Shown: positions 6,637 to 64,000 of the stretch, piece after piece
Layout: every line of letters starts with the position of its first letter
Position numbering within the stretch: position 1 is the stretch's first letter
Source of the DNA: a virus
Taxonomy: Duplodnaviria > Heunggongvirae > Uroviricota > Caudoviricetes
Length of the DNA: 64,000 nucleotides
Virus record (IMG/VR): IMGVR_UViG_3300005076_000001
Span: 23,361 to 87,360 of that record
Reading direction: 5' to 3' (one strand)
Translations under genes and position numbers: made by a program
The notes under the pieces: model-generated
Told to the model about the DNA's origin: nothing
Databases searched by the model: none
Seen by the model: only the letters and a program-made list of their open reading frames with translations

Positions 6637-6996
6637 ATGTCCTCTGCTCTTTTCCGTCTTGTTGGGTATGTTGATGTTACATTAAAGCGAAGAGGATTGC
6701 CTACAATTGTAAAAGGTAAGCCTGTTCCTGCAACAGCTACAGATGTTCCGATTAAAGCAAACATTCAACCTGTTGGATATGCAGAGCTAATGCAGCTTCC
6801 TGAAGGTGATAGAAGTAAACAGCTTATCATGCTTATGTCCACATTTGAAATTCGTGACATGAAAGAAGGAAGCTGGGAAGCTGATGAGTTTGAGTGGGAA
6901 GGTGATATGTATGTTGTTCTGAAAAGTCGTCATTATTCGATGCGTGTACGTAACCATTATCAAGCTATTTGTGCTAGAAAGCAAATGGTGAAATAA
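6637..6996 (+). CDS. structural hypothetical protein
   Basis: 119 aa ORF with RBS AAAGGAAA; structural operon. Confidence 0.35.
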   Translation: MSSALFRLVGYVDVTLKRRGLPTIVKGKPVPATATDVPIKANIQPVGYAELMQLPEGDRSKQLIMLMSTFEIRDMKEGSWEADEFEWEGDMYVVLKSRHYSMRVRNHYQAICARKQMVK

Positions 6997-7538
6997 TGAG
7001 CACAGCTTACACAACACTTGAAGACAAGCTGTATGACGCTTTGTATGTTGCAATGGGTAACAATGCGTCCATCCCAATCATTTACGCAAACAGAAACATT
7101 CCAGAGCCAGCAGGAACACACATTGCCATTCGTTCCATCCATCGTAATCCAATGGGGAGAGCACAAAAGTCTTCTCGTGTAGACACAGACGGTAATCTTG
7201 TCAGTGTACAGCATTACGAGTGGTATGTGCAGTTCACAGTTGTTGGTGATGACAGTGGTAATGTCAGTATGGATTTAGCCTCCATCTTCGACAGTGAAGA
7301 AGGGTTGTATCAGTTTGCAAAACAAGGATTATCCTACCTTCGTCGTTCACATATTCGTGATGTTCCAAAAAGCAGGGAAGATGGAAGTTATGTCCTTGCC
7401 TGCAACCAAGATGTTTTCTTCGGAATTGCTCTAGAGATTAAGACAGCTTCGCCTTCAATTAATTACATCAACTACACATCCTCGTATCCATCTTCACAAC
7501 AAGGCGGAAGTACATGGTTGCCATCCACCCCTCCGTAA
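6996..7538 (+). CDS. structural hypothetical protein (tail terminator/neck candidate)
   Basis: 180 aa, ATGA overlap with previous gene; immediately precedes sheath. Confidence 0.35.
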   Translation: MSTAYTTLEDKLYDALYVAMGNNASIPIIYANRNIPEPAGTHIAIRSIHRNPMGRAQKSSRVDTDGNLVSVQHYEWYVQFTVVGDDSGNVSMDLASIFDSEEGLYQFAKQGLSYLRRSHIRDVPKSREDGSYVLACNQDVFFGIALEIKTASPSINYINYTSSYPSSQQGGSTWLPSTPP

Positions 7539-7551
7539 CAAAGGAAATTAA

Positions 7552-8841: not shown

Positions 8842-8853
8842 TAGGAGAATAGT

Positions 8854-9378
8854 ATGGCAACTCAAACACTGGCTACATTGGCCCCTGAGGATATTAAGGT
8901 AGTGGTTTCAACCGACACTTTCACCCACATCATCTCTGGTTATTCCGAAGATGCTATGGTGAGTATTGCTCGTAATAGTCCTACTTTTGAGATTTTTGTC
9001 TCGGCTGACAATCAACCGACTCGTGTTTACAAGAGCAACACTTCTGCCACTGTAACACTGACACTGAATCAAACTTCCGTGTCTAACGATGTTCTGTCTC
9101 AGCTTTACATCAACGACAAGAACAGCCGTAACAGCACTGGTTTGTTCCAGATTCAAATCTTGGATATGTCCGGTCGCAGCCGTTACACCTCTGGTCAAGC
9201 CTTCATCGCTGTTGTTCCTGACAGTGCATTTTCCAACTCGATTCAAACCCGTGATTGGCAAATCTTCTGCAACGACATGGAAACAATCATCGGTGGTAAT
9301 GCTCTGATTGGTGATGATGATGCTAACACACTGGCAACGCTTGGTGCAACTGTAGAAGCTAAATGGCGTAGCAACTAA
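8854..9378 (+). CDS. tail tube protein candidate
   Basis: 174 aa, directly after sheath candidate, followed by strong terminator. Confidence 0.5.
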   Translation: MATQTLATLAPEDIKVVVSTDTFTHIISGYSEDAMVSIARNSPTFEIFVSADNQPTRVYKSNTSATVTLTLNQTSVSNDVLSQLYINDKNSRNSTGLFQIQILDMSGRSRYTSGQAFIAVVPDSAFSNSIQTRDWQIFCNDMETIIGGNALIGDDDANTLATLGATVEAKWRSN

Positions 9379-31543: not shown

Positions 31544-32101
31544 TTAATCTCTAGACAATATATCTCTCAACAGCTTCCTACGCTTTGCTTCACTATTGAT
31601 AGCAACACCAGTATACCCTTTTTCTTGAAGGTAGGCAAGCACCTTTGCCTTGTTTTTTAACATGTCAATAATGGTTGCCTCAGTCTTAGCTTCCTCAAAG
31701 GACACACCAAGACGCTGCCCAAGACTTACAATTCTGTGACACCCCTTGCATAAAATCCTCAAATCACTATCAGCAACCACTAAAAGCTTTTCTACACAAG
31801 ATCGTACATCATCCAGAGATGTAAGGGAAGCTGTTTCTTCAAGGATGTGGTCAACTTCCACTTCGTTCTGCTTAAAAACTTGCTGGCAAATCTCACATTT
31901 GTACGCGTTAACAAAAGGGAAACGTTTCATTGAACGTGGGTTTGTGTTTGGAACACGCATTGCCCTCTTCTTCAAATGCTTTAGACGTACAGGGGATTTA
32001 GACCACCCTTTCCTAATAATCCCCTTAATCCACGAGAAGAAGGCAGAACGTGTCTTCCAAACATCTTGGTTTTCTGCAACGATGAGGTCGATTTTATCCA
32101 T
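31544..32101 (-). CDS. HNH endonuclease
   Basis: CEICQQ...VEVDHI...CKGCHR HNH Zn-finger nuclease signature; ATG 32101 with GAGAAGG RBS. Confidence 0.55.
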   Translation of the reverse strand: MDKIDLIVAENQDVWKTRSAFFSWIKGIIRKGWSKSPVRLKHLKKRAMRVPNTNPRSMKRFPFVNAYKCEICQQVFKQNEVEVDHILEETASLTSLDDVRSCVEKLLVVADSDLRILCKGCHRIVSLGQRLGVSFEEAKTEATIIDMLKNKAKVLAYLQEKGYTGVAINSEAKRRKLLRDILSRD

Positions 32102-33080
32102 ACAACACCTTCTCATACGCTTCACTGAACGTCACTGCATCATCTTCCCAGCGACGCATACGTGCCATATCCCACATTTCAGAGGCAACATATTTCCAAT
32201 CAATCACAATATCATCTCCTCGCCAACCTTGAATTGTTTTTGGCTCTGGGTAGAGTGTTTTGAATATTTGCTCGATTGCAACAAACGCTTCTTTATCATT
32301 CTGCAAGCCACGCAGAATGTCATAAGCCTTCACATCACCCCATTTTACATCAGAGAAGCAACTGGCATTATAATTGTCACTCGTATCTCCGCTACACATT
32401 TGAAAATAGAAGAACAAACGTCCAATACCCCTCACCTTACCCTTACTATCTCGCCACAATTTACCAAACCAATTGCAATTACGAATACCAAGTTCAGGAT
32501 AGTTTGGATTGAACAAGAAGATTGGGCAACCGTTATAATCCTTGTCAACCCCGATCACAACATGGTCTTTCTTCTTGTACGCTTCAATTACACACCAATC
32601 GTCAGCCTCAAGAGAGGTGCATTCAATCGGTTTATATTTAGCCTGCAAATATTGTGTTACATCATCCAAGTATAGAGGTTTTAGCAGGTCAGCACGTTGC
32701 CCTTTGTATTTCAATAGTGTGCTACGTTCTACACGAAAACTATCACCTTTACCAATGAAAGAGACATAGTTGTCAGCGTTAATAGCTTTCAAGCCACCTT
32801 CAAACATCATTTTGGCTGTGTGTAAAACATTCTCGATTGGTTCTGGTGTTTGCACATCAATGATTTCAAAATCGTCTGCAACAAACGGTGATGTACGTCC
32901 TTTGTTAAGCTCTCCAAGCCAACCACCATCTTTGTTCTTGCCACGACCCCAAAACTCTGTCCTGTTTGCAAAAGGGTGTTCTCTACCACTTTGTTTGTGA
33001 ATAGCAACGATGGAGCGTTTCTCTCCCACACCTGCTGCTGCATACTTGATAAAATCTAAATCGACAATAGCTGTTGTCAT
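32094..33080 (-). CDS. 5'-3' exonuclease / flap endonuclease (FEN, T5 D15 / T4 RNase H-like)
   Basis: N-terminal MTTAIVDLDFIKYAAAG; EADDWCVIEAY; VIGVDKDYNGC motifs of PIN-like 5' nucleases; start ATG 33080 with AGGAGAACC RBS. Confidence 0.7.
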   Translation of the reverse strand: MTTAIVDLDFIKYAAAGVGEKRSIVAIHKQSGREHPFANRTEFWGRGKNKDGGWLGELNKGRTSPFVADDFEIIDVQTPEPIENVLHTAKMMFEGGLKAINADNYVSFIGKGDSFRVERSTLLKYKGQRADLLKPLYLDDVTQYLQAKYKPIECTSLEADDWCVIEAYKKKDHVVIGVDKDYNGCPIFLFNPNYPELGIRNCNWFGKLWRDSKGKVRGIGRLFFYFQMCSGDTSDNYNASCFSDVKWGDVKAYDILRGLQNDKEAFVAIEQIFKTLYPEPKTIQGWRGDDIVIDWKYVASEMWDMARMRRWEDDAVTFSEAYEKVLYG

Positions 33081-33640: not shown

Positions 33641-33960
33641 TCTTCCTTCGCCTCCCAATAAGCATCAACATCAAACTTATTGTTCTTGTCAAACACCACT
33701 GTCACACGACCACCACAACCATCATAGCAATTCTTGAAAATAATGTAGCTTTCTGTTTCTACAGGTGTACCATGATGCTCGACACCATATGTGTTTCCAT
33801 TTCCGTTGACCAAGTCTTCTTTGTTGTTGTCTGTGTTCCAGTGGACAGCACTGGAAACTGAATACCACAAACAGTCTGTCAAATCGTCAATGTCAGGTGT
33901 GATGAATTTGCTCAGTAAGGTGGCTGCTGCCAGCATTTCTTTAACGTCGTTGTCAGTCAT
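33637..33960 (-). CDS. hypothetical protein
   Basis: 107 aa ORF. Confidence 0.3.
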   Translation of the reverse strand: MTDNDVKEMLAAATLLSKFITPDIDDLTDCLWYSVSSAVHWNTDNNKEDLVNGNGNTYGVEHHGTPVETESYIIFKNCYDGCGGRVTVVFDKNNKFDVDAYWEAKEE

Positions 33961-34585
33961 TTTGTTGCTCCTCTTTCACTTCATACTCCATCAGTGCCTT
34001 ATAAACCCGTGGGTCAACTCTGCCCTTGTAGTGCTCAGCAACAAGCTTCACATACTTTTCCTTTTCTATTTTAAAGAAAGCAAAAGCAGCTTCAGGTGTT
34101 GTGAACTCCTTGTAAACTGTACTCAGGTTCATCGCACCTCTGCGGATTGTTGCAGAATAACGTTCGCCTCTTGACGTGAGTGCAACACCAGTCGGCAACC
34201 CTTTAGTGCATTTCCTGTTCACTTGCAGCAAATTGTTTATAGCAACAGGTACAAAGACACATGTCTCTGGGGAGTATGCTTTACCATTACCGTTAGCCAA
34301 AACATCTTTGTCTAGGTGAAACATCTTTCCGTTATCGTCTAAGGAACAGTATCCAATCTGAGTTTGGCACCACTCCACAAAAGACTGAAAATCGGTAAAG
34401 AGATTAAGAGTCCCTTCATAATAACTCACTTTCGAGTCACTACCAACTGTTCTCCTACGTACACTATAGAATAGTGCAGCAGCGTGCGTTGTTACTTTTA
34501 CATAGGGTTCAGGGTTAAATGCTTTTACCCACAAACCATTCACTTTAAAATCTGGAACATTCTTTCTTGTTATGTATCTGCTCAT
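33953..34585 (-). CDS. HNH-type homing endonuclease with C-terminal AP2 DNA-binding domain
   Basis: FQSFVEW...HLDKDVLANGNGKAYSPETCVFVPVAINN nuclease-like region then AP2-like GVALTSRGERYSATIRRGAMNLSTVYKEFTTPEAAFAFF; paralogous to 45258..46568 and 59761..60342. Confidence 0.5.
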   Translation of the reverse strand: MSRYITRKNVPDFKVNGLWVKAFNPEPYVKVTTHAAALFYSVRRRTVGSDSKVSYYEGTLNLFTDFQSFVEWCQTQIGYCSLDDNGKMFHLDKDVLANGNGKAYSPETCVFVPVAINNLLQVNRKCTKGLPTGVALTSRGERYSATIRRGAMNLSTVYKEFTTPEAAFAFFKIEKEKYVKLVAEHYKGRVDPRVYKALMEYEVKEEQQND

Positions 34586-38051: not shown

Positions 38052-38277
38052 CAATCTGTTATGTGGTTCGTTACACCACCTTGCATCCCTGCAAGTGTCG
38101 GACTATATCACCATCTCTCACGAGATGCCCCCCGTTTCGAGAGCACTTGCTCCCTACGCCTTTCGGCTAGTCTCTAGGCTTTCAGCTTTCGCTGTTTAGC
38201 ACGGTAAGTTAGCTGTTCTAGCTTTCTCCGTTTAGAGGGGTTTTCAATACGCATCACTGCGCAAGGCCACAATGTCT
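38052..38277 (-). other. group I self-splicing intron (226 nt, no ORF) in DNA polymerase gene
   Basis: 5' exon ends in U (..UACUACCAU); intron starts AGACAUUGUGG (IGS GUGG pairs CCAU giving U.G); R-like GAGACUAG (plus 38167-38174) and S-like GAUAUAGUCC (plus 38100-38109) P7 elements; terminal G; splicing restores HDE motif. Confidence 0.7.
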
Positions 38278-40995
38278 ATGGTAGTAGATTACGCGTTTAA
38301 CTTCGTAACCTTTATAAATATAGTAAGGTCGCCCCTTATCGTCAATGTACATCTCGCCCAACCATGTATCCATGAAACAACAAGCAAGGTCACAAGCAAT
38401 AGCACCACCAGACTGCATGATGATATTAATCAGGCTGTGTTTACTGCGTGTGTTCAGCAACCGTCCATCAATAGCAGGCAGGTGTTTCTTCTTGCCCTTG
38501 GTTTCCCAATACTTCTCCACATTCTCCTTCAGAGCCTTCAGCGCAGGGTTTGAGTCCCAGAACGCATCGTACAGTCGCTTACCTTCTGCCTCCGGCTTAC
38601 CAAGCGTTGTGGCCAGTTTCTTAGGTGAAGAACCATACAACACTGCGTAGCCACCGCTTTTTGCTTTGTTACGCCAAGGTTTGAAACGCGGGTCATCCTT
38701 GTTAAAGTCCACAGCCTTGTAGTCAAAGCCTTTCGTCTCTTCTGGGAAGAAGCTGCATGCCACTTTACTGTGAACATCACCCTCAAGCAACTCTTTTGCG
38801 TATGCACCGTTGTCGTACTTGTGCGTATTACCTGTAATGGTGATGGTGTTGCCCTGCTTCATGACCCAACTACCATGTTTTGTCTTTGGGCACCACACTT
38901 CCTCTGTGCCATAGTAAGATACTGCCATACGCTGCATGGTCACAAAACCTTTCCTGTTCACAGTGACAGTGTTATGTTTACAGCGTACATATTCTCTTGT
39001 AGCAACCGTCAGCATAGCGTCTGTAGCAAGGTACGTGGCGGTCAGGGCGGCATCAAAGTGCTTGCCTTCATTCTGAGAGAATCTCCACCGACCATCCGGA
39101 TTTCCAGCACAAACCTTGTGTGCATTTTCTCCTTCAAAATGACCATCTGCTACCAAGAAACCCTCCAACCACCTTTGCGTTTCTGCCAGTGATTGTTGAC
39201 AGATTCGTTCAGTCCAGTCAATAGAATACTTACCTTTTGCAAACTGCATGTCACAACCGCTGTAGTCGAGTGTTGGTGCATTTACAATAATGTTACAACA
39301 TGTATTCAAGTCTTTTGTCTCAACAACTCTGTCCTCGTAAGTTCGTTTTTGCGTGTTTCTGTATTTTACAAACCACCTGTGGTTGGCAGTTGCTCGTACA
39401 GAAAAATGCGAGTTGCTAATAGTATATGTTTCGGCATCAGAGAACTTGTGCTTGCTTTCTAGTGGTGTCCACTCTTTCTTTTTAGTCTCTGGGTTATATG
39501 CAAGTATATCTTCACCAATGACAAGCTCATTAAAAAACTTCCAACCTGTACGGGTTAGTGCTTGTGCCGACATTGGGACGCAATAATGGCCTGTAATGCG
39601 TTGTTCCAAACCACTGCTGTCAGAGGCTGCAATAACGAAGCCATCTTCAGCACAAAACAAACGCCTAAACTCTTCACCATACACACTACCGACACGAGGC
39701 ACGTTGCAAATTTCACTATGCGCTTGACGATGTGTGTTGGTAATTTTTGTGCTCTTAGGGTTTAGTCGTCCATCCCAATCAAGACGCCACACACCCAACC
39801 AACCCTCAAGCACAGAGAGACGATTACGCAAAGACAGAAAGCGAACAACGTCTTTAGCCAACTCACCTTCAAGAATTTCAAGATTAGGACACAGCTTGCC
39901 CATCTCCTGTAGCTTCGGTGATGTTTGGATAACATCTTTTGTACGCTCGTCTCTGACAGCTTTGCCTTTTGCGTCCTTCTTAATGTTCCAGAAAGTAGGC
40001 ACCCAACCATGCTCTTCTTGTAGCCAAGTTTTCAGATCGTCTTGGTGTTTAAGTTCCATTGGAAGCATAACGTCAAGAACAAGGTTGCCAACAACTTTAT
40101 ACTGCTTACCGTAAAACTCAACAACACCTGTGCTCACCTCTTTACCGTTATGCTTTGCAATAAAGTTTTGCATATGGTGTGAGTAAGAGCCGTCTTTCTT
40201 GTAAGGGTTTTTAGGAAGTGTGTATTCCTTTTCTTCACCTTTGTTCGGACTGCGTGGTGGCAGCTTAGGCTCAACCTTCTCCTTGAGTTCTTCAATCTCT
40301 TTCTCAAGGCGTTCTTTCACCTCAAGAGCAAGCTTCTTGTCAAAAGCATGACCCGTAAACTCTTGTGCTTTCATGAGGAAGAAGCTTTTCTGCCCCATGC
40401 GATAGCTAGGGTGAACCCACGCATCACCGTACATGTCAACAGCCTTACGCCATAGATCGAAGAACACAACAATGTTTGCGTCAACGTCTTGGTCACAATA
40501 CTCTTCCATCAACGGGTGATAGAAAGAAAACTCATGTCCTTTTGTTTCATTGCCAACCATCACACCAATGTCTACGAGGCGCTGGCGATAGTCGATCTTG
40601 TGACTACCAGCTTTGCGCGACAAAGCATCCAAACTGTGTGACTCAAGATCAGGTTCAAGGTACATGGATAGGTAGAGTGTGTCCCAAAACACCACCTCAA
40701 TACCTGCCAGCGTGTCTTTGCCTTTTTTGCCGACGCGAGGTTGTAGGTCGAAATGCTTCCACAACACCCACACATCATAGCCCAAGATATTGTGGCCTAC
40801 GATCAGCGGTTTATCAAACTGAGACAAAAAGTCTACAACGGCTTGTCTCACTTCCTCTTTTGTCATCTGGAACGGACGAAGGCTCAGTATCTTACTGCCA
40901 TCTGCTGTCTTCCAACGCATATACCACACTTGCTTTGATTGCAAATAGAGGTTGTCTGCCTCAATGTCAAATACAATGATGTTACTCCTGTCCAT
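38278..40995 (-). CDS. DNA polymerase, family A (T7 gp5-like) exon 1, with 3'-5' exo domain and an in-frame intein
   Basis: Exo I NIIVFDIEADN, Exo II HNILGYD; motif A DSSGLEQRI; motif B RNKAKSGGYAVLYG; start ATG 40995 with AGGAGAAAG RBS; ORF reads through into intron to TGA 38254. Confidence 0.85.
38827..39582 (-). mobile_element. intein (252 aa) with LAGLIDADG-type motif inserted after pol motif A
   Basis: Begins Cys right after ...EQRITGHY; block B TANHRWF; LEGFLVADGHFEG; ends ...ITITGN followed by Thr; flanks align contiguously to T7 gp5 (AHFMARFDNGEYAHEILNGDIHTK vs GHY/THKYDNGAYAKELLEGDVHSK). Confidence 0.75.
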
Positions 40996-41024
40996 ACTTT
41001 CTCCTCTGTAAACACTCACAAGAA

Positions 41025-41047
41025 GGGACAGCACTATCGCCTGTCCC
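41025..41047 (-). promoter_or_regulatory. 5' UTR hairpin of DNA polymerase mRNA
   Basis: GGGACAG-9nt-CTGTCCC perfect stem between promoter and RBS. Confidence 0.35.
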
Positions 41048-41095: not shown

Positions 41096-41338
41096 TCAAA
41101 GGGTTGTCCACCAATCTGGAACATAACCCATTGCCACGTCCTTCTTACCTTCTTGTTTGCAGTTTGGACACTCTTTCAACTTAACGTCACCACTTAGCGA
41201 CCACTGATGGTTACAAATCTTACAACGACAATACGTTTGCATCCACAACTGCTTGATAGATACACTACTGTCTTCCGCTGTGAATTTAATCATGTTTTGT
41301 TTCTCCTTTACGATATTTCTCCGTGAACTCATCAACAC
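41096..41338 (-). CDS. Zn-ribbon protein
   Basis: CRCKICNH...CPNCK paired Cys motifs. Confidence 0.3.
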   Translation of the reverse strand: MLMSSRRNIVKEKQNMIKFTAEDSSVSIKQLWMQTYCRCKICNHQWSLSGDVKLKECPNCKQEGKKDVAMGYVPDWWTTL

Positions 41339-41624
41339 TCTTTTTCAACTCAGACATGTTCCGCTTGTGTGCATGATAGCGACGTTCACTATCCTTCTCT
41401 GCCTCTTCTTTCGTAGCAAACAAGAAACGCTCTTCAATTGTGTCAAAATAATTATCAATGTGCGTAAACACTTTAACAACGTAATGCACATGCTCAGAAA
41501 CATCGTTATCAAAGAATGGCGTTACGACAACAACGTCATAGGCTTCTTGGGGTTTGCTAGGCCACAGCTTCATAGCATCTGCTGTACGCCACAGAACATC
41601 ACCTGCTTTGTATTTCGGGTTCAT
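41286..41624 (-). CDS. hypothetical protein (copy B1 of duplicated cassette)
   Basis: 112 aa; paralog of 41983..42360 (PKYKAGDVLWRT, YIDNYF, ERFLFATKEEAEKDSERRYHAHKR). Confidence 0.4.
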   Translation of the reverse strand: MNPKYKAGDVLWRTADAMKLWPSKPQEAYDVVVVTPFFDNDVSEHVHYVVKVFTHIDNYFDTIEERFLFATKEEAEKDSERRYHAHKRNMSELKKSVDEFTEKYRKGETKHD

Positions 41625-41887
41625 ACTTCATCTCCAATAATACCTTCTGGCAAAAGTTGTTCTGTGAACACCAACACTGTTGGTTCTTCTTCCATAAACG
41701 GAACAGCAACGTGCTCCTCTTCAAACACAGCAAGCTGTTCCATCATGTCCTCTTTCTTCCCAAAAATAGCTTCCCAGCCTTTAGCATATTTCTCTTGACC
41801 AGAAGCTTTTGTCTTAATCAAATCCACTGTGCTGTCATCCAGCAATCCTGTGGTCTCAATATCAAAACACCATGCTCCCTTGTCCAT
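41621..41887 (-). CDS. hypothetical protein (copy A1 of duplicated cassette)
   Basis: start ATG 41887 with AAAGGAGAACAG RBS; paralog of 42344..42604 (DLIKTKASGQEKYAKGWEAIFGKK). Confidence 0.4.
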   Translation of the reverse strand: MDKGAWCFDIETTGLLDDSTVDLIKTKASGQEKYAKGWEAIFGKKEDMMEQLAVFEEEHVAVPFMEEEPTVLVFTEQLLPEGIIGDEV

Positions 41888-41965
41888 CTGTTCTCCTTTT
41901 GTAACATTGTTTGCAACGAGGGGCGTGTGACGAACGCAGGGAGCCACACACCCTTCCAAACAACT

Positions 41966-41993
41966 AATGTAACACAGAATGTCTATTTGTCAA
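41966..41993 (-). promoter_or_regulatory. early promoter TTGACAAATAGAC...TCTGTG-TACATT (minus strand)
   Basis: near-identical to pol promoter; minus-strand TTGACA (plus 41988-41993) N16 TACATT. Confidence 0.45.
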
Positions 41994-42360
41994 GAACGGT
42001 ACGTGCTTGTGCAGCCTTTGCTGCAAGCTCTTGCCCACGCTTCTTAGCTTCAGCCAACACACGCTTGTGTGCATGGTAACGCTTCTCACTATCTTTAACA
42101 GCTTCTTCTGCTGTCTCAAACAGACAACGCTCTGGGACAATGCAGAAATAATTGTCAATGTAAGTGTAGACAGTGCAAACATACCACACTTGGCTGTCAA
42201 CATCATGCTTGTCAAGAACAGCTGTCACTTGAACGTCATACGCTTCTTTAGCAGGCTTCTCTCCAACTTTCCACCAAATGTTTTCTGCGTCGCTTGTACG
42301 CCAAACAATTTTACCAATGTTGTATTTTGGGACAATAACTTTATCATTGTTCATTTTCAA
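41983..42360 (-). CDS. hypothetical protein (copy B2)
   Basis: 125 aa paralog of B1. Confidence 0.4.
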   Translation of the reverse strand: MKMNNDKVIVPKYNIGKIVWRTSDAENIWWKVGEKPAKEAYDVQVTAVLDKHDVDSQVWYVCTVYTYIDNYFCIVPERCLFETAEEAVKDSEKRYHAHKRVLAEAKKRGQELAAKAAQARTVLDK

Positions 42361-42604
42361 TCATCCCTTGTGGCAACAAGCCTTCTACAAACTCTTGCAC
42401 ATACGGAACACACTCAACATCGCCCTCCGGTGTTTCAAGAATAAAACGAGCGTCTTTGGAAGAAATGGTTTGTTCCTCTTGTTTCTTCCCAAAAATACGT
42501 TCCCAATTATCTGCATATGCTTTCTGAGAAGAAGCTTTGCTTTTAATCAAATCCCCTGTTACATCGTTTACAGATGTTTTGAATTTCTCTACATCTTTAG
42601 CCAT
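42344..42604 (-). CDS. hypothetical protein (copy A2)
   Basis: 86 aa paralog of A1. Confidence 0.4.
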   Translation of the reverse strand: MAKDVEKFKTSVNDVTGDLIKSKASSQKAYADNWERIFGKKQEEQTISSKDARFILETPEGDVECVPYVQEFVEGLLPQGMIENEQ

Positions 42605-42616
42605 GTTCTTTCTCCT

Positions 42617-43627
42617 TTACGCGTCTTTGTTCTTCAACAGATATGCGTTGCTAATTGCTTTAAAGCTGAAATCACTTGTCAGATGTTTGAACACCAACCC
42701 TTCACGCTTAACACCCTTGTTCATACCTTCGCCTTCGGCCATTTCCAAGAGTTGTTTTACGTCATGTACAAGAACGTATTTGGCGTTAAACACAGGTACA
42801 TGAGGAATACCAAGTTGCTTGCACAAAGCAGCACGCTCCTCTGGAAGCAAATACTGGCGCTTATCAATGTCGTAAACATCGTAAACAAACATGCACAGCT
42901 TGTCAACCTTCTCCCAATTACCTTGAATGTTTGTGTTCAGCATCTCACCTTGGATTGCAAGTTGACGCCCTGTGGAACGGATTTTCTCGTGCAAATTCTC
43001 TTGTTTAGCAATAATCCAGAATGCACTATCACCCTCTTGCAAATCTAGATTGCGACTGCACACACCTTCACGCCAAACATTATCTTCATTCACACTGTAC
43101 ACAGTGATGGAACTTCCGTCAAGTTTCAACGTAACCTCAAATTCTTCACCTTGCATTTGCTCGATAATACGGGACAAATTTTGAACACGTTCTTGGTCTG
43201 TCTTAGGGATGAATGATGGGAAATTCCCTCGTGCCAAACCTGCAAGCTGTGGAGAAATCGGTTTGTCCCACTTCTTGATACCCAGAATCTCGGCGACATC
43301 TGCGCCTTCTTCAAATACATAATCAGCGAAATCTAGAATACTCATTGGTAGCAATAATCCTTGGCTGACAACACCTCGCAGTTTCTTGGTGCGCAGACGA
43401 GCACCTTCTACACCTTCAAACTCTTTACCCTCAAACAAGAAAGAAGCAAGCTCTTTTGGCATCCAAGAATCAATCTCAAAATACACAGCCAAATCGCCTG
43501 CTTTAAACTCTCCCTTCTTAATTACGACATTCCAACCGCCAACGATAGCACACTCAATTGCATCAGCGTCTTTGATAGGTACAACGTCATCAATACGGCG
43601 TACAGTGGCAAGTTTGCGTTCACTCAT
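42617..43627 (-). CDS. ATP-dependent RNA ligase-like nucleotidyltransferase (N-terminal OB-like domain + KxDG NTase)
   Basis: Motif I EVTLKLDGSSITVY (K-x-D-G) resembling T4 Rnl1 KEDGSL; ~150 aa N-terminal domain as in DraRnl-type ligases; separate from the DNA ligase at 58932. Confidence 0.5.
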   Translation of the reverse strand: MSERKLATVRRIDDVVPIKDADAIECAIVGGWNVVIKKGEFKAGDLAVYFEIDSWMPKELASFLFEGKEFEGVEGARLRTKKLRGVVSQGLLLPMSILDFADYVFEEGADVAEILGIKKWDKPISPQLAGLARGNFPSFIPKTDQERVQNLSRIIEQMQGEEFEVTLKLDGSSITVYSVNEDNVWREGVCSRNLDLQEGDSAFWIIAKQENLHEKIRSTGRQLAIQGEMLNTNIQGNWEKVDKLCMFVYDVYDIDKRQYLLPEERAALCKQLGIPHVPVFNAKYVLVHDVKQLLEMAEGEGMNKGVKREGLVFKHLTSDFSFKAISNAYLLKNKDA

Positions 43628-43628
43628 T

Positions 43629-44021
43629 TCATTCTCCTTTACTTAAAATATAAACATCAGCTTGTGCCAACGAACACAAAGCTTCTTCCTTAATATGCAT
43701 ATATTGCATTGTATACAGCTTCATTGCATTACACAAGAACGAAGACATGCGAGAGCAAGCTTGGTGTATTTCTTCTTCGTTATTTCCGTTCAATGCCTCT
43801 ACAATGCGAAAACATTGTACAACAGACTCTGTTGGAATGTCAACAGATGGGTTGTCACTTGTTACATGCCTCAGCTCAAAGAACATCTTAGAAGCTGTCT
43901 TTCGTACAAACACAATCCGGAAAGAACATCCATTTAACACAATCCCTATGTCATTTGGAACATTGTGTGCTAATGAACACAACAACATTTTCAATAACTT
44001 TTCTGGAGAGCTTGTTTTCAT
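43629..44021 (-). CDS. hypothetical protein
   Basis: 130 aa ORF. Confidence 0.3.
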   Translation of the reverse strand: MKTSSPEKLLKMLLCSLAHNVPNDIGIVLNGCSFRIVFVRKTASKMFFELRHVTSDNPSVDIPTESVVQCFRIVEALNGNNEEEIHQACSRMSSFLCNAMKLYTMQYMHIKEEALCSLAQADVYILSKGE

Positions 44022-44335
44022 GACGCATATTCCGAAGGAATGTTCCCTTTCAATTGGTTGATGATAGCGGAAATATCTATCGGCTTTTCCAACAACACCT
44101 CACCCTCAGAGGCATACGCGGCTTTCAAAACAGCCTCATGCACAGCTTCCGCCACAGTTTGCAGGGCTTCGTCAGTGTATAGCTGACGTACTTCGTAACC
44201 GAATTCCTTGATAAGATGTGGGTCTGGTGCAGTAAGCCACCGCGAAACATCTCCGTTATGATTCCTTCGGAACTGGTGATGTGCTGGCTCAATTTTGTTC
44301 ATATTAATTCTCCTTACGCAAAATACGTTCTGCAA
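44018..44335 (-). CDS. hypothetical protein
   Basis: 105 aa ORF. Confidence 0.3.
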   Translation of the reverse strand: MQNVFCVRRINMNKIEPAHHQFRRNHNGDVSRWLTAPDPHLIKEFGYEVRQLYTDEALQTVAEAVHEAVLKAAYASEGEVLLEKPIDISAIINQLKGNIPSEYAS

Positions 44336-44744
44336 TATCTCTATTCACAGGGCAATCGAATGCTGTCCAATACAAAGCGTTACGCTCTGCTTCGATGAGA
44401 CGTTGTTTAAGTTGTTCGTTTTCTTGTTGAAGCTGCAAAACAACATCATCCATCAGGTCGTGGTAGCCTCTGTTTTTCAGACGAAGAAAACCTCCCCACA
44501 CCGTTACATCCTTTTCTTCGTAAAAATCAATGATGACAAAATTCCCTGTTGTACCTTTCACAATGAAGGTGGAATCCAGATCACTAATGTACCAACCATA
44601 CCAATCTCCTCGTGTGGCAAGTACATTTTTCTTATGCTCCTCTGTGAACACAACCACATCACCTTTCTTAAACATTCTCTTTCTCCTCTTTGTTAGTAGC
44701 TTGCTGCAACACCCCAAAACAACGAACAACGTCAGCATAGCCAA
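44304..44744 (-). CDS. hypothetical protein (MFKKGD N-terminal domain; probable start at 44672)
   Basis: internal MFKKGDVVVF matches N-terminus of 30939..31526. Confidence 0.3.
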   Translation of the reverse strand: MAMLTLFVVLGCCSKLLTKRRKRMFKKGDVVVFTEEHKKNVLATRGDWYGWYISDLDSTFIVKGTTGNFVIIDFYEEKDVTVWGGFLRLKNRGYHDLMDDVVLQLQQENEQLKQRLIEAERNALYWTAFDCPVNRDIAERILRKEN

Positions 44745-45257: not shown

Positions 45258-46568
45258 TTACACACGTTCCTTTACAGAGTAGCTCATCAGTGCGTGATAC
45301 GCAGCGGGAATGATATGCTCTTTCCATTTCTCAGCAAGACGTCTGGCATAAGCTTCTTTGCAACCACAATATGCTTCATGGGCTTCCTCTTGAGTTGGGA
45401 AGAATCCAAGGTATTCCCTACCTTTCTCTGTGTTGCAACGAGCAATGTACCCAACTGTCTCATTAGGTGTTTTAGGCTCAATGATGTGTACACCACGCAA
45501 GAACTTGGAGTCGCTCGGCTCGATGAGGAACTTGTTAACTTCTGATGGTAGGAAACAACAGCCTTCTGGCCCGTACACTTTGTTGTTAGGAATCAACAGG
45601 TCTTTGTCAAGTTCAAACTTAGGTAGTTGCCAGTTTGGTTGTGCCAAACCCCATTCAGCGAAGTTATGAAAATTCCACCACCTTTGGTCTACCTCTTTAT
45701 CCTCATAGCTTCTACCTGTTGGTTTTTGCAACTCAAACTCATTGTAACAGCGACTGAACATCCTTACCCAATAACCGTACATCCGCTCTGGTGCATGTTC
45801 ACCACGCTTGCTGCCGCGAGGAACAAACCTGCCAACACCAAAGAAACCTCTACCCTCTACAGACGGCTGCGTTGGTGGTTTAATACCGCCACTCAAAATA
45901 TTAGCAGAAGCATTCCAAGACTCGCTACCATCTTGCCATCGAATGAGAACGTCATGTGGCCCTTCGTAGCCAATAACTTCGCCTTCCCAACCGCTATTTG
46001 TTTTGAACTTTTGCCCAATACGGACAGCGCCTGTCGGATGCCTTACATTACCTTCTTTTAGGTTGTTCCAAGAAGTAACAACTTCACTTCCATCCTCAAA
46101 GGCAACTAGAATCTTTGTGGCGTTTACAAACTGTTTAACCACAACACTCCCGTAGTTGTTCGTAGAGAATACAGTACCAATCTCCGGTTTGCTCTTGGTT
46201 GGATGGCGATTGTGCCCTTGTCGAAGAACTGCAATGTTGGTAGTATGCTCCGTTCCATCGCTCAACCACTTAACACGCATCTCGGAGTTTTTCAATACTT
46301 CCACAATCTCAACAACATCACCGTCATGGCAAGGGAATTGTTGCCCAACGTAAGGCTTACCGAACGTAGGATGAAGTGGGCGCTGTTGTTTAATATAAGT
46401 GCCGGTGGTTGTCACAATAGCCCCGTCAAGGTCGAAACGAACGTCAATGTCCTTTCTTCCTCGGTATGCAACAATCTCAACTTCAAGCCCCTGTTTGTTT
46501 GTATAGCGATAGCCTACAAAATAGGCACCTTTCCTACTACCCATATACCCTCCCAATAAATAAGCCAA
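45258..46568 (-). CDS. HNH-type homing endonuclease with four N-terminal ~50 aa tandem repeats and C-terminal AP2 domain
   Basis: Repeats ending in (R/L)HP; nuclease-like WWNFHNFAEW...LDKDLLIPNNKVYGPEGCCFLPSEVN; AP2-like GREYLGFFPTQEEAHEAY; paralog of 33953..34585. Confidence 0.5.
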   Translation of the reverse strand: MAYLLGGYMGSRKGAYFVGYRYTNKQGLEVEIVAYRGRKDIDVRFDLDGAIVTTTGTYIKQQRPLHPTFGKPYVGQQFPCHDGDVVEIVEVLKNSEMRVKWLSDGTEHTTNIAVLRQGHNRHPTKSKPEIGTVFSTNNYGSVVVKQFVNATKILVAFEDGSEVVTSWNNLKEGNVRHPTGAVRIGQKFKTNSGWEGEVIGYEGPHDVLIRWQDGSESWNASANILSGGIKPPTQPSVEGRGFFGVGRFVPRGSKRGEHAPERMYGYWVRMFSRCYNEFELQKPTGRSYEDKEVDQRWWNFHNFAEWGLAQPNWQLPKFELDKDLLIPNNKVYGPEGCCFLPSEVNKFLIEPSDSKFLRGVHIIEPKTPNETVGYIARCNTEKGREYLGFFPTQEEAHEAYCGCKEAYARRLAEKWKEHIIPAAYHALMSYSVKERV

Positions 46569-46592: not shown

Positions 46593-48347
46593 TTAAAATG
46601 AAACGTCCTGCTTACCCACCCAATCATCGAAGTCGTGCAATGAGTGGGTTTGTCCATCATAGAACAGTTTTCCACACTCACCTGTTGTACCTGCTCCGCG
46701 ATTCTTAGGCATGAAGAGGTTTGTAGTGTTGCGAATTATAGGGTCTTCGTTCATCTTGTCTCGACTTGCAATGATAATCCATGCAGCGGATTTAACAAGC
46801 GTACTACTACCCTGAACACCGCTCTCTGTGCCAACACCACCTTGACTACCATCCTTCTCACCCGTACCAACCTTACGTTGATGGGCAATCAGTATAAAGC
46901 TTACAGGATAGTTTGTCACCATACCCTTCATCCACATCATAAGCTGTGCTTGTTCGTCCACAGTGAGCATATCGAAGCTGTCAGAAATGGTGTCCCATAC
47001 GATGATTTGACAATCACATTGAATGATGAGCTGTTCAATGCGTTGCTTCATAATGTCGATGTGGCAGTCACGATCATCAATTACAAACCAACGATCTGCG
47101 CCGTCTGGTGTACGGAACAGTTCATTAGCCTTCTCAATTACCCACTCTTGTTCAAGAAGCTCAACCTTCTCTTCTTTAGTAAGAGCACCAAGTTTTACAC
47201 CGATATGGCGAGATAACACAAGCTCAGAATACTGGCCCAAGTTCTGTTCCATTGAAATGACGCCAACTTTCAGTTGACCGTTCATTAGCCAATGGTAACA
47301 GCACTCATTGACAATAGTTGATTTTGCTGCACCTGTAAATGCAGAAATCAGGCCAATCGTTCCCAGTGCTGGGCCACCTGCTGTCATGCTGTTAAACTTC
47401 TTCATGAAGGGCGGAAACTCAATACGTGGTGCATGTGCTTCTTTGATAACAGCATCAAGAAAACTACTACTACCTGCAATCCCTTGCGGTACATAAGGTT
47501 TTGCCTTCAAAAACGCATTCAGAAAATGGCGAGAACGATCTTGAATAAGCATCTCGTTAGCGTCTTTAAGGTCAATGTGCATAACGTACATCTTCCCTTT
47601 GGGCAGAACATCTACAAGCTTCTTGACAGCATCTTGACCAGCCTTATCGTTATCATAACAAACAATAATTTGCTCGAAACGATTTAGCCACTCGTAGTGG
47701 TGTTTCAATTGCTTAAAGCTGGCTGTCTCGCCCACAACAGCACTGACGATAGGTGTTGGCTCATACTCGCTGTCTGGCTTGTTAAGCATTGCATACGCAG
47801 ACATTGCATCAACTTCACCAGCGGTGATGAGAATCTTCTTGCTGTTGCTGTTACGGAATTTGTGCTGACCAAACAAATCACTCTCACTGCCCATGCTGCC
47901 AACTGTGTAGAATGTTTTTGGAAGCTGCCTTACTTTAAAGCCCGTCAGAACACCATCTTTGAAGATTGGATAGTATTGCTCAGTTGGCTCACCTGTGGTT
48001 GTGTCAATCTTATGGCGAACGTAAAACGGTGTGTACGCCCAATCAGGAATGCCACGTACTTTGTAGCCTTGTGGTGTGGTGTACCCTTTAATCTTCTCAA
48101 TCTCTTCTTTAGTTAGTGGTTCCTTGCTGCTCACCTCTTCCTCCATTTCATCAGTCCAGTCAAAAACACCAAGCCCACGTCTCTCTAATTCATCGTCGGA
48201 CAACACAGAGAAGCCGCAGCTGAAACAATGACCGCCAAGCCCCTCGCCATAGAAATAAAAGTTATCCCCAGAATGATCTTGGTTGTTCTCACGGCAGCGC
48301 GGGCATGGGTTTTTACCGATTTTAAAATCAACCGCGTAGTGGTTCAC
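46593..48347 (-). CDS. primase-helicase (T7 gp4-like)
   Basis: N-terminal Zn ribbon CPRC...CFSC; TOPRIM-like ITAGEVDAMSAY; Walker A AFTGAAKST; 584 aa. Confidence 0.8.
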   Translation of the reverse strand: MNHYAVDFKIGKNPCPRCRENNQDHSGDNFYFYGEGLGGHCFSCGFSVLSDDELERRGLGVFDWTDEMEEEVSSKEPLTKEEIEKIKGYTTPQGYKVRGIPDWAYTPFYVRHKIDTTTGEPTEQYYPIFKDGVLTGFKVRQLPKTFYTVGSMGSESDLFGQHKFRNSNSKKILITAGEVDAMSAYAMLNKPDSEYEPTPIVSAVVGETASFKQLKHHYEWLNRFEQIIVCYDNDKAGQDAVKKLVDVLPKGKMYVMHIDLKDANEMLIQDRSRHFLNAFLKAKPYVPQGIAGSSSFLDAVIKEAHAPRIEFPPFMKKFNSMTAGGPALGTIGLISAFTGAAKSTIVNECCYHWLMNGQLKVGVISMEQNLGQYSELVLSRHIGVKLGALTKEEKVELLEQEWVIEKANELFRTPDGADRWFVIDDRDCHIDIMKQRIEQLIIQCDCQIIVWDTISDSFDMLTVDEQAQLMMWMKGMVTNYPVSFILIAHQRKVGTGEKDGSQGGVGTESGVQGSSTLVKSAAWIIIASRDKMNEDPIIRNTTNLFMPKNRGAGTTGECGKLFYDGQTHSLHDFDDWVGKQDVSF

Positions 48348-53233: not shown

Positions 53234-53920
53234 GTGATAAGTTGTAACGTATACATACTAACAGACAAGACAAACAAAGCAGTAAAGATAGGGATAACAA
53301 AGAAACATCCAGATGTACGTATCTCTACTATCAACAAAGAAGCAACGAAGTACAAGTTTGTTCTTCATAAGTTTGAAACAATGTCCACACCAAAGGCAAG
53401 GTGGGTAGAGAACAAGTTGCTTGATGCATTAGAGAAGATGGGTGGCGCTTGGGTTGAAGATGATGATTTTGGTGGTGTAACGGAAGTTGCTACACTTGAT
53501 GTAACCAATGTTGTGTTTGATGCTTGTGTCTCGTATCTAGACAATCTTCTCCTCACTCTGGCAGAACAAGAGTTCAAAGAACGAAGTTACACAGAACTAG
53601 AAAATGACAGCAGTGTTCTCAAAATTCCTCTGAATCTTCTTGGTGCAAAATACCTGCACAACCTTTTCACAGATGCTAAAATTCAACTAGACCTTACACA
53701 CAAGGTTTTGCTGTGCTTGCTAAAGGACGATGGTAACGTAGACCAATCCACACTTGCAGATGTTTGTGGGGTTAGCAGACACTCTGTTTTGCGTGCAATT
53801 TCTATGCTGTCCTCTTGTGGCATTGTCGAGGTTGTTAAGGTGCGAGCAAGCAATGGAGCCGTGTACAACAACTATGTGGTGCATGAAATTGATGGTGTAG
53901 CATTTGTAGCATACAAATAA
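53234..53920 (+). CDS. T5orf172 (GIY-YIG-like) domain + winged-helix DNA-binding protein
   Basis: GTG start with CAGGAGATAGAA RBS; N-terminal VYILTDKTNKAVKIGITKK; C-terminal wHTH LLKDDGNVDQSTLADVCGVSRHSVLRAISML. Confidence 0.45.
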   Translation: MISCNVYILTDKTNKAVKIGITKKHPDVRISTINKEATKYKFVLHKFETMSTPKARWVENKLLDALEKMGGAWVEDDDFGGVTEVATLDVTNVVFDACVSYLDNLLLTLAEQEFKERSYTELENDSSVLKIPLNLLGAKYLHNLFTDAKIQLDLTHKVLLCLLKDDGNVDQSTLADVCGVSRHSVLRAISMLSSCGIVEVVKVRASNGAVYNNYVVHEIDGVAFVAYK

Positions 53921-58765: not shown

Positions 58766-58932
58766 CAAGTGGCTACTATTTCATTAAGCTAGCTACAAAC
58801 GTAGCCCTTCCAATGTACGTCATATGTCTTGACGAACGCATGTATATTTGGCAGAATGGGAAACAACAATGGCTGCAATTGAAGAAAGAGCAAATAATGG
58901 GTGAACGTCTTACGTATGAGGGAGATAAGTAA
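58747..58932 (+). CDS. hypothetical protein
   Basis: 61 aa ORF. Confidence 0.25.
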   Translation: MLGKAMTSGYYFIKLATNVALPMYVICLDERMYIWQNGKQQWLQLKKEQIMGERLTYEGDK

Positions 58933-59768
58933 TGCTATACAACATCCTCAAACAACTTCAAGAAACACCGAGTACAAACGATAAGCTTTCTATTTTGAAA
59001 GCAAACAAAGACAATGAGACATTGAAAGAATACATGCGTCTTGTTTGTTGCCCTTCTGTCTCGTTTTATATTACAGCAAAGACGTTTCCTGTTGTATCTA
59101 AGATAGGGACACATACATTCCAGTCTCTCATGAATGCTGGGTATTCTCTTGGTACAAAAGAACTTTCTCAACGTCATGTTACAGGACAGGCAGCAAAGAA
59201 TTTTATTGTTGCTACAATGGAAGACCTTGATGAAGAGCACCAACAACTGTACAAAATGCTTCTTCTCAAGGACATTCGTGCGAAAGTGGGGGCAACACTT
59301 GTGAATAAGGTGTGGCCTAATTTGTGTGTCTCTGTTCCATATCAACGCTGCTCTCTTCCAGATGAAAAGACATTGGAGAAGTTTAAGAATGGAGAACAGT
59401 TCTTTGTTCAACTTAAATACGATAGTTCTTTTGCATATGCGTTCAAGTCTCCACGTGAATTTGCCCTTATTACAAGGGCCGGGTCACGATACCCCAAAGA
59501 AATTGCAAGTATCATTACAGAAGACATTCCAGAGAACTACGTGTTGATGGGTGAGTTAGAGGTTGTTTACAAAGGGGAAGTCCTTTCTAGAAAAGATGGC
59601 TGTGGGGTGCTAAATAGCTTGTTGAACGGAGGGCCGTTACCTTCTGGTTGTGGGCTTCAATTAACTGCGTGGGATGTTGTCAGTGTTGAAGAATTTTCAA
59701 AAAGTAAGAGTGACAAACCGTACTGGGAAAGACTCAACCTGCTGAGGGGGATGTTCACGAATGAGTGA
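58932..59768 (+). CDS. ATP-dependent DNA ligase (T4 gp30-like), N-terminal fragment (through motif IIIa)
   Basis: MLYNILKQLQETPSTNDKLSILKANKDNETLKEYMRL ~ T4 ligase N-terminus; VNKVWPNL; motif I region QLKYDSSF; LITRAGSRY; ends where T4 ligase continues. Confidence 0.7.
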   Translation: MLYNILKQLQETPSTNDKLSILKANKDNETLKEYMRLVCCPSVSFYITAKTFPVVSKIGTHTFQSLMNAGYSLGTKELSQRHVTGQAAKNFIVATMEDLDEEHQQLYKMLLLKDIRAKVGATLVNKVWPNLCVSVPYQRCSLPDEKTLEKFKNGEQFFVQLKYDSSFAYAFKSPREFALITRAGSRYPKEIASIITEDIPENYVLMGELEVVYKGEVLSRKDGCGVLNSLLNGGPLPSGCGLQLTAWDVVSVEEFSKSKSDKPYWERLNLLRGMFTNE

Positions 59769-60342
59769 TAATTTACACTGGGAAGATTATTTCTACTACG
59801 ACGAAACAAGTCCTAGTTGTCTAAGGTGGAAAGTTTCTGTGTACAGTGGATGTGGGTTAAAAACACAGAATGTCAGAGAAAACCAAGAAATCCAGCATAA
59901 AGATCGTGAAGGGTATTTTGTTGTTGGGTTGATGAAGAGGAGACATAAAGTACATAGAATAATCTATGAGATGTTCTACGGAGAAATCCCAGAGGGCATG
60001 GTGATAGACCACGTAGATAGAGACAAAGAAAACAACAAGATTGAGAATCTGCGCGCAGTTTCATGCAAAGTTAATTCCAGAAATACTAAAAGATACTCCT
60101 CCAACACGTCTGGGGTGACAGGGGTTAGTTTGCAAACCTCTTATAAGTCTTCAGGAAATTACACAGCGTATGTTGCAAATTGGACAGATTTAGAAGGAGT
60201 AAAACACGGAAAGTCATTTTCCATCCTTAAATATGGGGAAGAATTGGCATTGAAATTGGCCGAGGAGTATAGACGCAGTAAGATTGCGGAGCTTAATGCG
60301 CAAGGAGCTGGGTACAATGACACACATGGGGATGTGCTATGA
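59761..60342 (+). CDS. HNH_3 homing endonuclease with AP2 domain, inserted between ligase halves
   Basis: IDHVDRDKENNKIENLRAVSCKVNSRN HNH_3 motif; AP2-like GVTGVSLQTSYKSSGNYTAYVANW...ELALKLAEEYRR; own SD GAGGGGGA; ATG overlaps ligase-N stop. Confidence 0.75.
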   Translation: MSDNLHWEDYFYYDETSPSCLRWKVSVYSGCGLKTQNVRENQEIQHKDREGYFVVGLMKRRHKVHRIIYEMFYGEIPEGMVIDHVDRDKENNKIENLRAVSCKVNSRNTKRYSSNTSGVTGVSLQTSYKSSGNYTAYVANWTDLEGVKHGKSFSILKYGEELALKLAEEYRRSKIAELNAQGAGYNDTHGDVL

Positions 60343-60839
60343 AAAATATTAAACTCGCAGAAACACACACAGTTACGTCACTGGAGGGTGCTTTTGAGAT
60401 CTATTCCAGATATGTTGAGCAAGGTTATGAGGGTGTGATTATTAAGACAAAAGATTTTTTGTGGAGTTCGTCTACAAGTAAGGAATGTCTCAAGCTGAAA
60501 GTGGAAGCAGAGATTGACTTGATTTGGACAGACAGTGTGGAAGGCAAGGGGAAAGCTGCCGGAATGCTTGGTGCTATGTGCTTGCAAAGCTCTTGTGGAC
60601 GTGTTAAAGTGGATTGTGGCACTGGCTATACAGATGCACAGCGTAAACAGCTTTGGGAAGAACGTAGCAGCCTGCATGGCTCTGTTGTGACGGTGAAAGC
60701 CAACGACCTCGTCTCGAAGGAAGGCAGCAATGTGTTGTCTCTATTCCTACCTGTGTTCATTGAGCTACGTGAGAAGCAAGAGGCAGACAGCTTGGAACGT
60801 ATTGAGCAAATTTTCAATGCTGCTAAACATATTGCTTGA
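60339..60839 (+). CDS. ATP-dependent DNA ligase C-terminal fragment (motifs IV, V and OB domain)
   Basis: EGVIIK (motif IV), CLKLK (motif V), GKGKAAGMLGAM...LFLPVFIELRE aligns with T4 ligase C-terminus; own SD GGGGA; ATGA overlap with HEG stop. Confidence 0.7.
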   Translation: MKNIKLAETHTVTSLEGAFEIYSRYVEQGYEGVIIKTKDFLWSSSTSKECLKLKVEAEIDLIWTDSVEGKGKAAGMLGAMCLQSSCGRVKVDCGTGYTDAQRKQLWEERSSLHGSVVTVKANDLVSKEGSNVLSLFLPVFIELREKQEADSLERIEQIFNAAKHIA

Positions 60840-63773: not shown

Positions 63774-63910
63774 AACATTGCAAGCGTTATTTTCACCTTG
63801 TTACAAAATAACAGGCAGCGGTGCCGTGCACCCCCAGCCATGCTGATCGAACCATTAAGGACAGTATACAAAAGAAAAGCAGCAAGCGCAAATTGTTTTT
63901 CGTGGCGTGC

Positions 63911-64000
63911 CTGGTAGCCTTCGGCTTTGCCTTAGCCTGGGCTTCGCCCTGGTAGCCTTCGGCTTTGCCTTAGCCTGGGCTTCGCCCTGGTAGCCTTCGG
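63911..64000. repeat. tandem 38-bp direct repeat (>=2.4 copies, truncated by window end), GC-rich with small hairpins
   Basis: unit CTGGTAGCCTTCGGCTTTGCCTTAGCCTGGGCTTCGCC at 63911-63948, 63949-63986, partial 63987-64000; internal AGCC-TTC-GGCT and AGCC-TG-GGCT mini-hairpins. Confidence 0.6.

Follow-up and report, generated by a model that had tools for sequence, protein, structure and literature searches.

We analysed a 64,000-nucleotide stretch of the genome of a Caudoviricetes virus (positions 23,361 to 87,360 of the IMG/VR record IMGVR_UViG_3300005076_000001), hereafter called the window. It carries a gene whose predicted product is an intact, full-length ATP-dependent RNA ligase of the Rnl5 family, the family of the DraRnl and NgrRnl enzymes. 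The explanation that best fits all the observations, and which we consider very probable, is that this ligase seals nicks, most likely in connection with replication or repair of the phage DNA and not in tRNA repair. The sequence itself is new, since no characterised or cultured homologue is more than 53% identical to it; the family is already well known.

Family assignment and predicted active site

The original prediction, made from the letters of the DNA, described an open reading frame (ORF) of 336 amino acids, a nucleotidyltransferase (NTase) motif I of sequence TLKLDGSS and an N-terminal OB-like extension of about 150 residues. All three were retrieved. The ORF occupies positions 42617-43627 on the minus strand and runs over 336 codons from an ATG start to a TAA stop. 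Motif I lies in the sequence EVTLKLDGSS, where the lysine is residue 168, and the NTase core is preceded by an N domain and a linker of together roughly 125-150 residues. The features of the gene are the following:

42617..43627, minus strand: gene of the predicted Rnl5-family ATP-dependent RNA ligase (336-residue ORF; TIGR02306, PHROG 968, NgrRnl 5cot, structural model)
43343..43612, minus strand: N-terminal OB-fold domain, residues 6-95, the signature Rnl5 N domain (Pfam PF21189, E 9.6e-31)
42656..43147, minus strand: nucleotidyltransferase (adenylyltransferase) domain, residues 161-324 (Pfam PF09414, E 3.7e-28)
43124..43126, minus strand: codon of Lys168, the predicted AMP-accepting nucleophile of motif I KLDG (from the sequence; aligns with NgrRnl Lys170)
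43634..43637, minus strand: putative GGAG ribosome-binding site, 7 nt 5' of the ATG (read from the sequence)

Several independent profiles place the protein in Rnl5. The only two Pfam domains above threshold are PF21189 ("PHA02142 OB-fold domain") and PF09414 ("RNA_ligase"). The NCBIfam equivalog model TIGR02306 ("RNA_lig_DRB0094") matches residues 6-332 over model positions 2-341 of 341, with 204.6 bits for a cut-off of 151.15, and PHROG 968 ("RNA ligase") matches at 2e-98. When the sequences of the PDB were searched, the sole strong matches were the entries of the Naegleria gruberi RNA ligase, NgrRnl (5cot and others): residues 2-335 align with residues 3-339 of 5cot (E 2.2e-95), and the global alignment shows 53% identity. 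Homologues are numerous, since 7,563 of the 8,000 candidates scored have E <= 1e-10, and 344 phage records hold an Rnl5 homologue. Neither this abundance nor the match to a ligase of solved structure can be put down to chance. Those of cultured phages are at most 49% identical to the window's ligase. The phage enzyme is thus closer to a eukaryotic protein than to any cultured-phage homologue, which fits a history in which Rnl5 was transferred horizontally between amoeboflagellates and phages or bacteria. As far as the sequence can tell, the protein has every testable feature that defines an Rnl5 ligase.

The structural model agrees with this assignment. An AlphaFold2 model built with 49 homologues as input has a mean predicted local distance difference test score (pLDDT) of 90.7 and is all-beta over residues 7-94, where it forms a beta-barrel. 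Foldseek gave a whole-chain template modelling (TM) score of 0.90-0.92 to NgrRnl. The scores for the other folds were 0.45 for T4 Rnl2, 0.44 for Rnl3, 0.38 for T4 Rnl1 (2c5u) and at most 0.37 for DNA ligases. The NTase motifs are all present: I (K168-L-D170-G), Ia (S191-R192), III (Q-G-E228), IV (R-E309-G-L-V-F-K) and V (F-K323). The chain stops at residue 336, 13 residues beyond the motif V Lys323, and has no C-terminal appendage.

The contacts of NgrRnl with ATP and metals are known from its structures (Unciuleac, Goldgur and Shuman, PMC7261155). Lys170 is the nucleophile, and its mutation abolishes ligation (PMC4408790). Asp172, Glu227 and Glu312 bind the catalytic metal via water molecules, Lys326 and Arg149 contact the phosphates, and Arg4, Lys121 and Asp53 of the OB domain contact the gamma-phosphate and the second metal (PMC7261155). 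Each of these residues has an identical counterpart in the window's ligase: K168, D170, E228, E309, K323 and R147 for the first six, and R4, K119 (in the linker) and D53 for those of the OB domain. An alignment of 49 homologues (54-88% identity) shows no variation at any of the nine.

Other identities fitted less well. The original prediction had likened the protein to T4 Rnl1, a resemblance that did not hold: RNA_lig_T4_1 (PF09511) reached 17.8 bits for a cut-off of 28.3, over some 45 residues around motif I only, the TM score to Rnl1 is low (see above) and the Rnl1 C-terminal domain is lacking. For ATP-dependent DNA ligases, PF01068 reached 15.8 bits for a cut-off of 26.2. No match to an mRNA capping enzyme (GTP:RNA guanylyltransferase) was found among the Pfam, PDB sequence and Foldseek results. 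The gene might still be a remnant without function, or its annotation might be wrong and the product be a capping enzyme or DNA ligase, and a weak sub-threshold Pfam match to DNA_ligase_A_M (E 0.011) could be read in this way. We find this scarcely credible, given that the protein is full-length with all catalytic residues conserved, that its model is confident and that its OB domain is N-terminal, whereas it is C-terminal in DNA ligases and capping enzymes. Because its best homology is not to either of these enzymes, the protein stands as an RNA ligase separate from the phage DNA ligase, as first proposed, with both PF09414 and TIGR02306 above their cut-offs.

The very close homology to the crystallised NgrRnl also suggests how the enzyme would work. 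Both DraRnl and NgrRnl follow the classic lysyl-AMP pathway with a preference for Mn2+, and they seal duplex 3'-OH/5'-PO4 nicks only when the 3'-OH strand is RNA; the N-terminal domain is required for adenylylation and dispensable for sealing a pre-adenylylated nick (PMC1807946, PMC4408790). In the window's ligase, Lys168 would attack the alpha-phosphate of ATP to give ligase-AMP. The catalytic metal would be held through waters by D170, E228 and E309, while R147 and K323, together with R4, K119 and D53 of the OB domain, would place the gamma-phosphate and the second metal. The AMP would then be moved onto the 5'-PO4 of the nick, and attack by the 3'-OH of the RNA strand would seal it. The expected substrate is a duplex nick with a 3'-OH on RNA and a 5'-PO4 on RNA or DNA, and the metal is probably Mn2+.

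Gene context and the role of the ligase

In the window, structural genes lie on the plus strand from about 1 to 22.4 kb, a minus-strand block extends from about 22.5 to 52.8 kb, and the genes that follow are again on the plus strand; this last block encodes a T4-like ATP-dependent DNA ligase and ThyX. The Rnl5 gene is in the minus-strand block, which reads primase/helicase, HNH endonuclease, three small unknown ORFs, Rnl5, a duplicated two-gene cassette and DNA polymerase A. The same block encodes a Band_7 protein, an exonuclease, more HNH genes, a DNA polymerase exonuclease subunit, a MazG-like protein and ribonucleotide reductase. Neighbours of Rnl5 in this block are:

46593-48347, minus strand: primase/helicase, in the same-strand block as the ligase
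45258-46568, minus strand: HNH endonuclease
38254-41034, minus strand: DNA polymerase A, on the other side of the Rnl5 gene from the primase/helicase

The TGA stop of the upstream ORF (43629-43631) is 1 nt ahead of the ligase ATG, and the downstream gene begins 13 nt past the ligase stop codon. The abutting upstream stop and the tight packing on one strand therefore indicate that the ligase gene is a cistron of a densely packed replication operon, with which it would be co-transcribed. A terminator-like hairpin (45249-45224) and then a near-consensus sigma-70-like promoter (45204-45176), both of them consensus matches only, precede the Rnl5 gene block.

A megablast search of the locus against deposited phages returned no nucleotide-level match; hence there is no close cultured relative among them. 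The primase/helicase of the window shares at most 43% identity with its counterparts in Pseudomonas myoviruses of about 99 kb, which likewise have, within a few kb of the primase/helicase and polymerase genes, a gene for an RNA ligase of the DRB0094 family. The ORFs that flank Rnl5 (43629-44744 and 41286-42604) have no Pfam or PHROG match and no homologue in 89 other Rnl5 loci, and we therefore see no conserved accessory protein.

We used these 89 loci to compare the settings in which Rnl5 genes occur. Their ORFs were called and clustered, and the Rnl5 proteins were dereplicated at 90% identity, leaving 67 loci including the window. Many of the loci are short contigs, and the counts that follow are lower bounds. 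In one setting, Rnl5 is found with replication genes: an ATP-dependent DNA ligase is present in 14 of the 67 loci, in 10 of them within about 1.1 kb of Rnl5 and on its strand, the stop and start codons overlapping in some cases, and primase/helicase and DNA polymerase A are usually alongside (e.g. L004 and L007). In the other setting, Rnl5 has potential end-healing enzymes on its own strand, namely an AAA_33 P-loop kinase (7 loci), a Cys-type dual-specificity phosphatase (11 loci) or a metallophosphoesterase (7 loci). The comparison suggests two separate genomic settings for phage Rnl5 genes; if so, the enzymes may have two different roles.

A quick distance-based neighbour-joining tree of the 67 sequences groups the window protein with L004, L005, L007, L010, L011, L012 and L013. 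All members of this clade have a DNA ligase, a primase/helicase or a DNA polymerase within 6 kb except L013, where a metallophosphoesterase lies about 4.6 kb from Rnl5. In the nearest relatives of the window protein, the Rnl5 gene and that of the ATP-dependent DNA ligase are direct neighbours. The kinase- and phosphatase-linked loci are mostly elsewhere in the tree. In a different clade, the AAA_33 polynucleotide-kinase-like protein flanks Rnl5 on the same strand in L041, L024, L028, L032, L056, L070 and L076. Its companions are a HAD_PNKP phosphatase in L041, where kinase and then phosphatase lie directly upstream of Rnl5 (6783-9032) as a split T4-like polynucleotide kinase-phosphatase (Pnkp), and a Cys-type phosphatase or a metallophosphoesterase in others. 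These loci look like heal-and-seal RNA repair cassettes built on Rnl5 instead of Rnl1.

The window has no such partner that we could detect, and in this respect the original prediction, which saw no Pnkp nearby, can be extended to the whole 64 kb. Pfam revealed no Pnkp domain in 20 unannotated ORFs of the window, and motif scans of the window found no pattern of a Pnkp-like P-loop kinase or DxDxT phosphatase. With T4 Pnkp as query (checked to be 100% identical to the T4 record), phmmer and tblastn searches of the window gave nothing better than E 0.26. Hidden Markov models of the Rnl5-linked kinase, Cys-phosphatase and metallophosphoesterase clusters were also negative against the six-frame translation of the window (best E 0.087). 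The original prediction had called this absence atypical. It is not atypical for the Rnl5 family or for the clade of the window protein, and it is expected of an enzyme that seals ready-made 3'-OH/5'-PO4 nicks: no kinase-phosphatase is needed because the substrate of Rnl5 already bears these ends. We found no tRNA gene in the window, and an Rfam scan returned no relevant family at the gathering threshold and no ribozyme match. Its match to HIV-1_SD (21070-21088) spans 19 nt and is a chance match.

These results bear on the proposal, made in the original prediction, of a T4 Rnl1-like ligase that repairs tRNAs cut by host anticodon nucleases, the ends being healed by a Pnkp encoded elsewhere in the genome or by the host. 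The gene product is an RNA ligase, some phage Rnl5 genes do adjoin kinases and phosphatases, and DRB0094-family ligases are reported to be enriched 140-fold in those gut phages that carry theta ribozymes linked to tRNAs (PMC10879173). The window also leaves out some 23 kb of the genome, which could harbour a Pnkp. Yet the protein is not an Rnl1 and lacks the C-terminal tRNA-binding domain of that enzyme, the 64 kb contain no Pnkp, kinase or phosphatase and no tRNA gene or ribozyme match, the protein belongs to the replication-associated clade and not to that of the healing enzymes, and a nick must be templated for the characterised Rnl5 enzymes to seal it (PMC4408790, PMC1807946). We consequently think tRNA repair improbable for this ligase. 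Pnkp-dependent repair of RNA breaks is plausible in a different Rnl5 clade; it is not supported for the window's ligase.

Sealing of RNA-terminated nicks linked to replication or repair is our best-supported guess for the role of the enzyme, drawn from gene context only. The likely targets in vivo would be nicks arising in phage DNA replication or repair, such as ribo-patches or nicks in RNA:DNA hybrids, and not cleaved tRNAs. In D. radiodurans the knockout is radiation-sensitive, which led to a model where the enzyme seals "ribo-patches" left by repair polymerases (PMC5397189).

Some considerations weigh against this role. Gene neighbourhood is weak evidence of function, and the DNA ligase of the window is 15 kb from Rnl5 and on the opposite strand, unlike in its relatives. 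The requirement for a 3'-OH RNA strand is extrapolated from two characterised members, and the identity is 53% to NgrRnl and less to DraRnl. The search for Pnkp covers the 64-kb window of a record of 87,360 bp. Another Rnl5 clade is linked to kinases and phosphatases, so that repair of RNA breaks is a real role for some members. Finally, the physiological role of Rnl5 has been called "uncharted" even in model organisms, the D. radiodurans knockout excepted (PMC5397189).

Two repeats complete the description of the window. The cassette between the DNA polymerase and Rnl5 genes (41286-42604, minus strand) is a tandem duplication of two genes: the ORFs 41983-42360 and 41286-41624 are 49% identical (E 7e-35), and the ORFs 42344-42604 and 41621-41959 are 41% identical (E 1e-14). 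At the right end (63910-64000, plus strand), a perfect 38-bp tandem repeat with at least 2.4 copies and 100% match runs off the window.

The split DNA ligase and mobile elements

The original prediction placed a bona fide T4-like DNA ligase elsewhere in the sequence. A T4-like ATP-dependent DNA ligase is indeed present at 58932-60839 on the plus strand, but as two ORFs of 278 residues (58932-59768) and 166 residues (60339-60839). Between the halves, and overlapping both, is an HNH/AP2 endonuclease gene (59761-60342, plus strand). The NTase domain is broken between its motifs IIIa and IV, and the joined halves are collinear with an intact homologue of 448 residues in L004 (54% identity). There is no Rfam match to a group I intron at the split; hence the HNH gene is free-standing. 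When aligned to the structure of T4 ligase (6dt1), motif I reads K-Y-D-S (residues 161-164, approximately 59412-59423) instead of K-x-D-G, and the glycine is kept in 19 of 19 homologous DNA ligases of related Rnl5 loci. Motifs III, IIIa and IV are intact, as is motif V. The DNA ligase of the window may be impaired or unusual.

This raises the question of whether Rnl5 is a back-up or replacement DNA-strand ligase that took over nick sealing in replication, perhaps with a relaxed specificity for the 3'-OH sugar. The HNH-split NTase domain, the deviant motif I and the position of Rnl5 within the replication operon all favour such a takeover. However, DraRnl cannot join nicks with a DNA 3'-OH strand and NgrRnl is reported to require RNA there (PMC1807946, PMC4408790), the other motifs of the split ligase are intact, split phage genes are commonly functional and the host LigA is at hand. 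Moreover, relatives with an intact canonical DNA ligase retain Rnl5, which is hence not a general replacement. We regard a takeover as highly improbable.

A narrower possibility is that Rnl5 is a second, replisome-associated ligase for RNA-terminated nicks (ribo-patches, or primer 3' ends abutting DNA) that partly compensates for a split DNA ligase devoid of the motif I glycine. This is a speculative extension to which we give little weight. If true, it would provide the first defined physiological substrate of Rnl5 in a virus.

The DNA polymerase A gene is interrupted as well. A group I intron without ORF (38079-38287, minus strand) interrupts it exactly within motif C, exon 1 ending in '...VIYYH' and exon 2 reading 'DEYSFEC...SWFSVH*' with its end at 37899. 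The intron matches Rfam RF00028 over the full model length with 45.9 bits (gathering threshold 50; E 1.2e-10), and the z-score of its fold is -3.5. Just past motif A there is a probable intein (approximately 38827-39582, minus strand; residues 485-736; 'SDSSGLEQRITGHY|C...GN|T'). It carries the LAGLIDADG-like sequence 'LEGFLVADGHF', and the match of the polymerase to its PHROG falls into two parts (14-487 and 739-890) that flank the intein; Pfam reported no intein domain at E < 0.001 in the polymerase. Homing-type endonuclease genes are also unusually numerous in the window, four being of the HNH type and one T5orf172/HTH:

31544-32125, minus strand: homing-type endonuclease gene
33953-34585, minus strand: homing-type endonuclease gene
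45258-46568, minus strand: homing-type endonuclease gene (the HNH gene listed above)
53234-53920, plus strand: homing-type endonuclease gene
59761-60342, plus strand: homing-type endonuclease gene (the one splitting the DNA ligase)

Together with the intein and the intron, this load points to heavy invasion by mobile elements.

Comparison with known systems

Rnl5 ligases have been known since 2004-2007 and were crystallised in 2015. Phage homologues have been on record since 2007 (Aeromonas phage 44RR2.8t), and the family is annotated in more than 300 phage genomes. The identification of the gene is thus routine in itself. What remains is the question of the role of Rnl5 in vivo, especially in phages, and a phage with Rnl5 in its replication operon and a possibly compromised DNA ligase would be a reasonable system to test a replication-linked role. 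The enzyme might also serve as a reagent for templated RNA-to-DNA ligation.

The closest characterised system is NgrRnl (PDB 5cot, 5cou, 6vt*). It has the same length as the window's ligase, the same order of N-terminal OB and C-terminal NTase domains without appendage, and the same KLDG motif I. The two differ in origin, eukaryal versus viral, at about 47% of positions, and by small indels in the OB-NTase linker and near residues 180-200 and 270. DraRnl (DR_B0094), the founding member of Rnl5, after which TIGR02306 was named, also has this domain order and motifs I, Ia (S-K/R), III, IV and V. However, its motif I is KLHG, where His167 is essential (PMC1807946), whereas it is KLDG in both NgrRnl and the window's ligase. 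DraRnl is also cellular and implicated in DNA repair after irradiation (PMC5397189), while the window's ligase belongs to a phage.

The RNA ligases of T4 are more distant. T4 Rnl2 is a functional analogue: it is encoded by a phage, it seals nicks only where the 3'-OH strand is RNA, and neither a partner nor a physiological substrate is known for it (PMC5397189). It belongs to another family, where an N-terminal NTase domain is followed by a helical C-terminal one, in keeping with its low TM score. T4 Rnl1 shares the covalent lysyl-AMP NTase chemistry and the KxDG motif I, but it acts on breaks in the anticodon loop after healing by Pnkp and has its own C-terminal tRNA-binding domain, for which the window's ligase has no equivalent.

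Among phages, members of the same family are found in the Pseudomonas phage PaP1 (gp079, 'RNA ligase, DRB0094 family'), in Pyxpy02, in pf16 (gp168) and in the Aeromonas phage cited above. In phages of the Pakpunavirus and Otagovirus types, the Rnl5 gene is also a few kb from the primase/helicase and DNA polymerase genes. The arrangement is not identical: PaP1 and Pyxpy02 encode Rnl5 and the replication genes on different strands, whereas in the window Rnl5 lies inside the replication operon.

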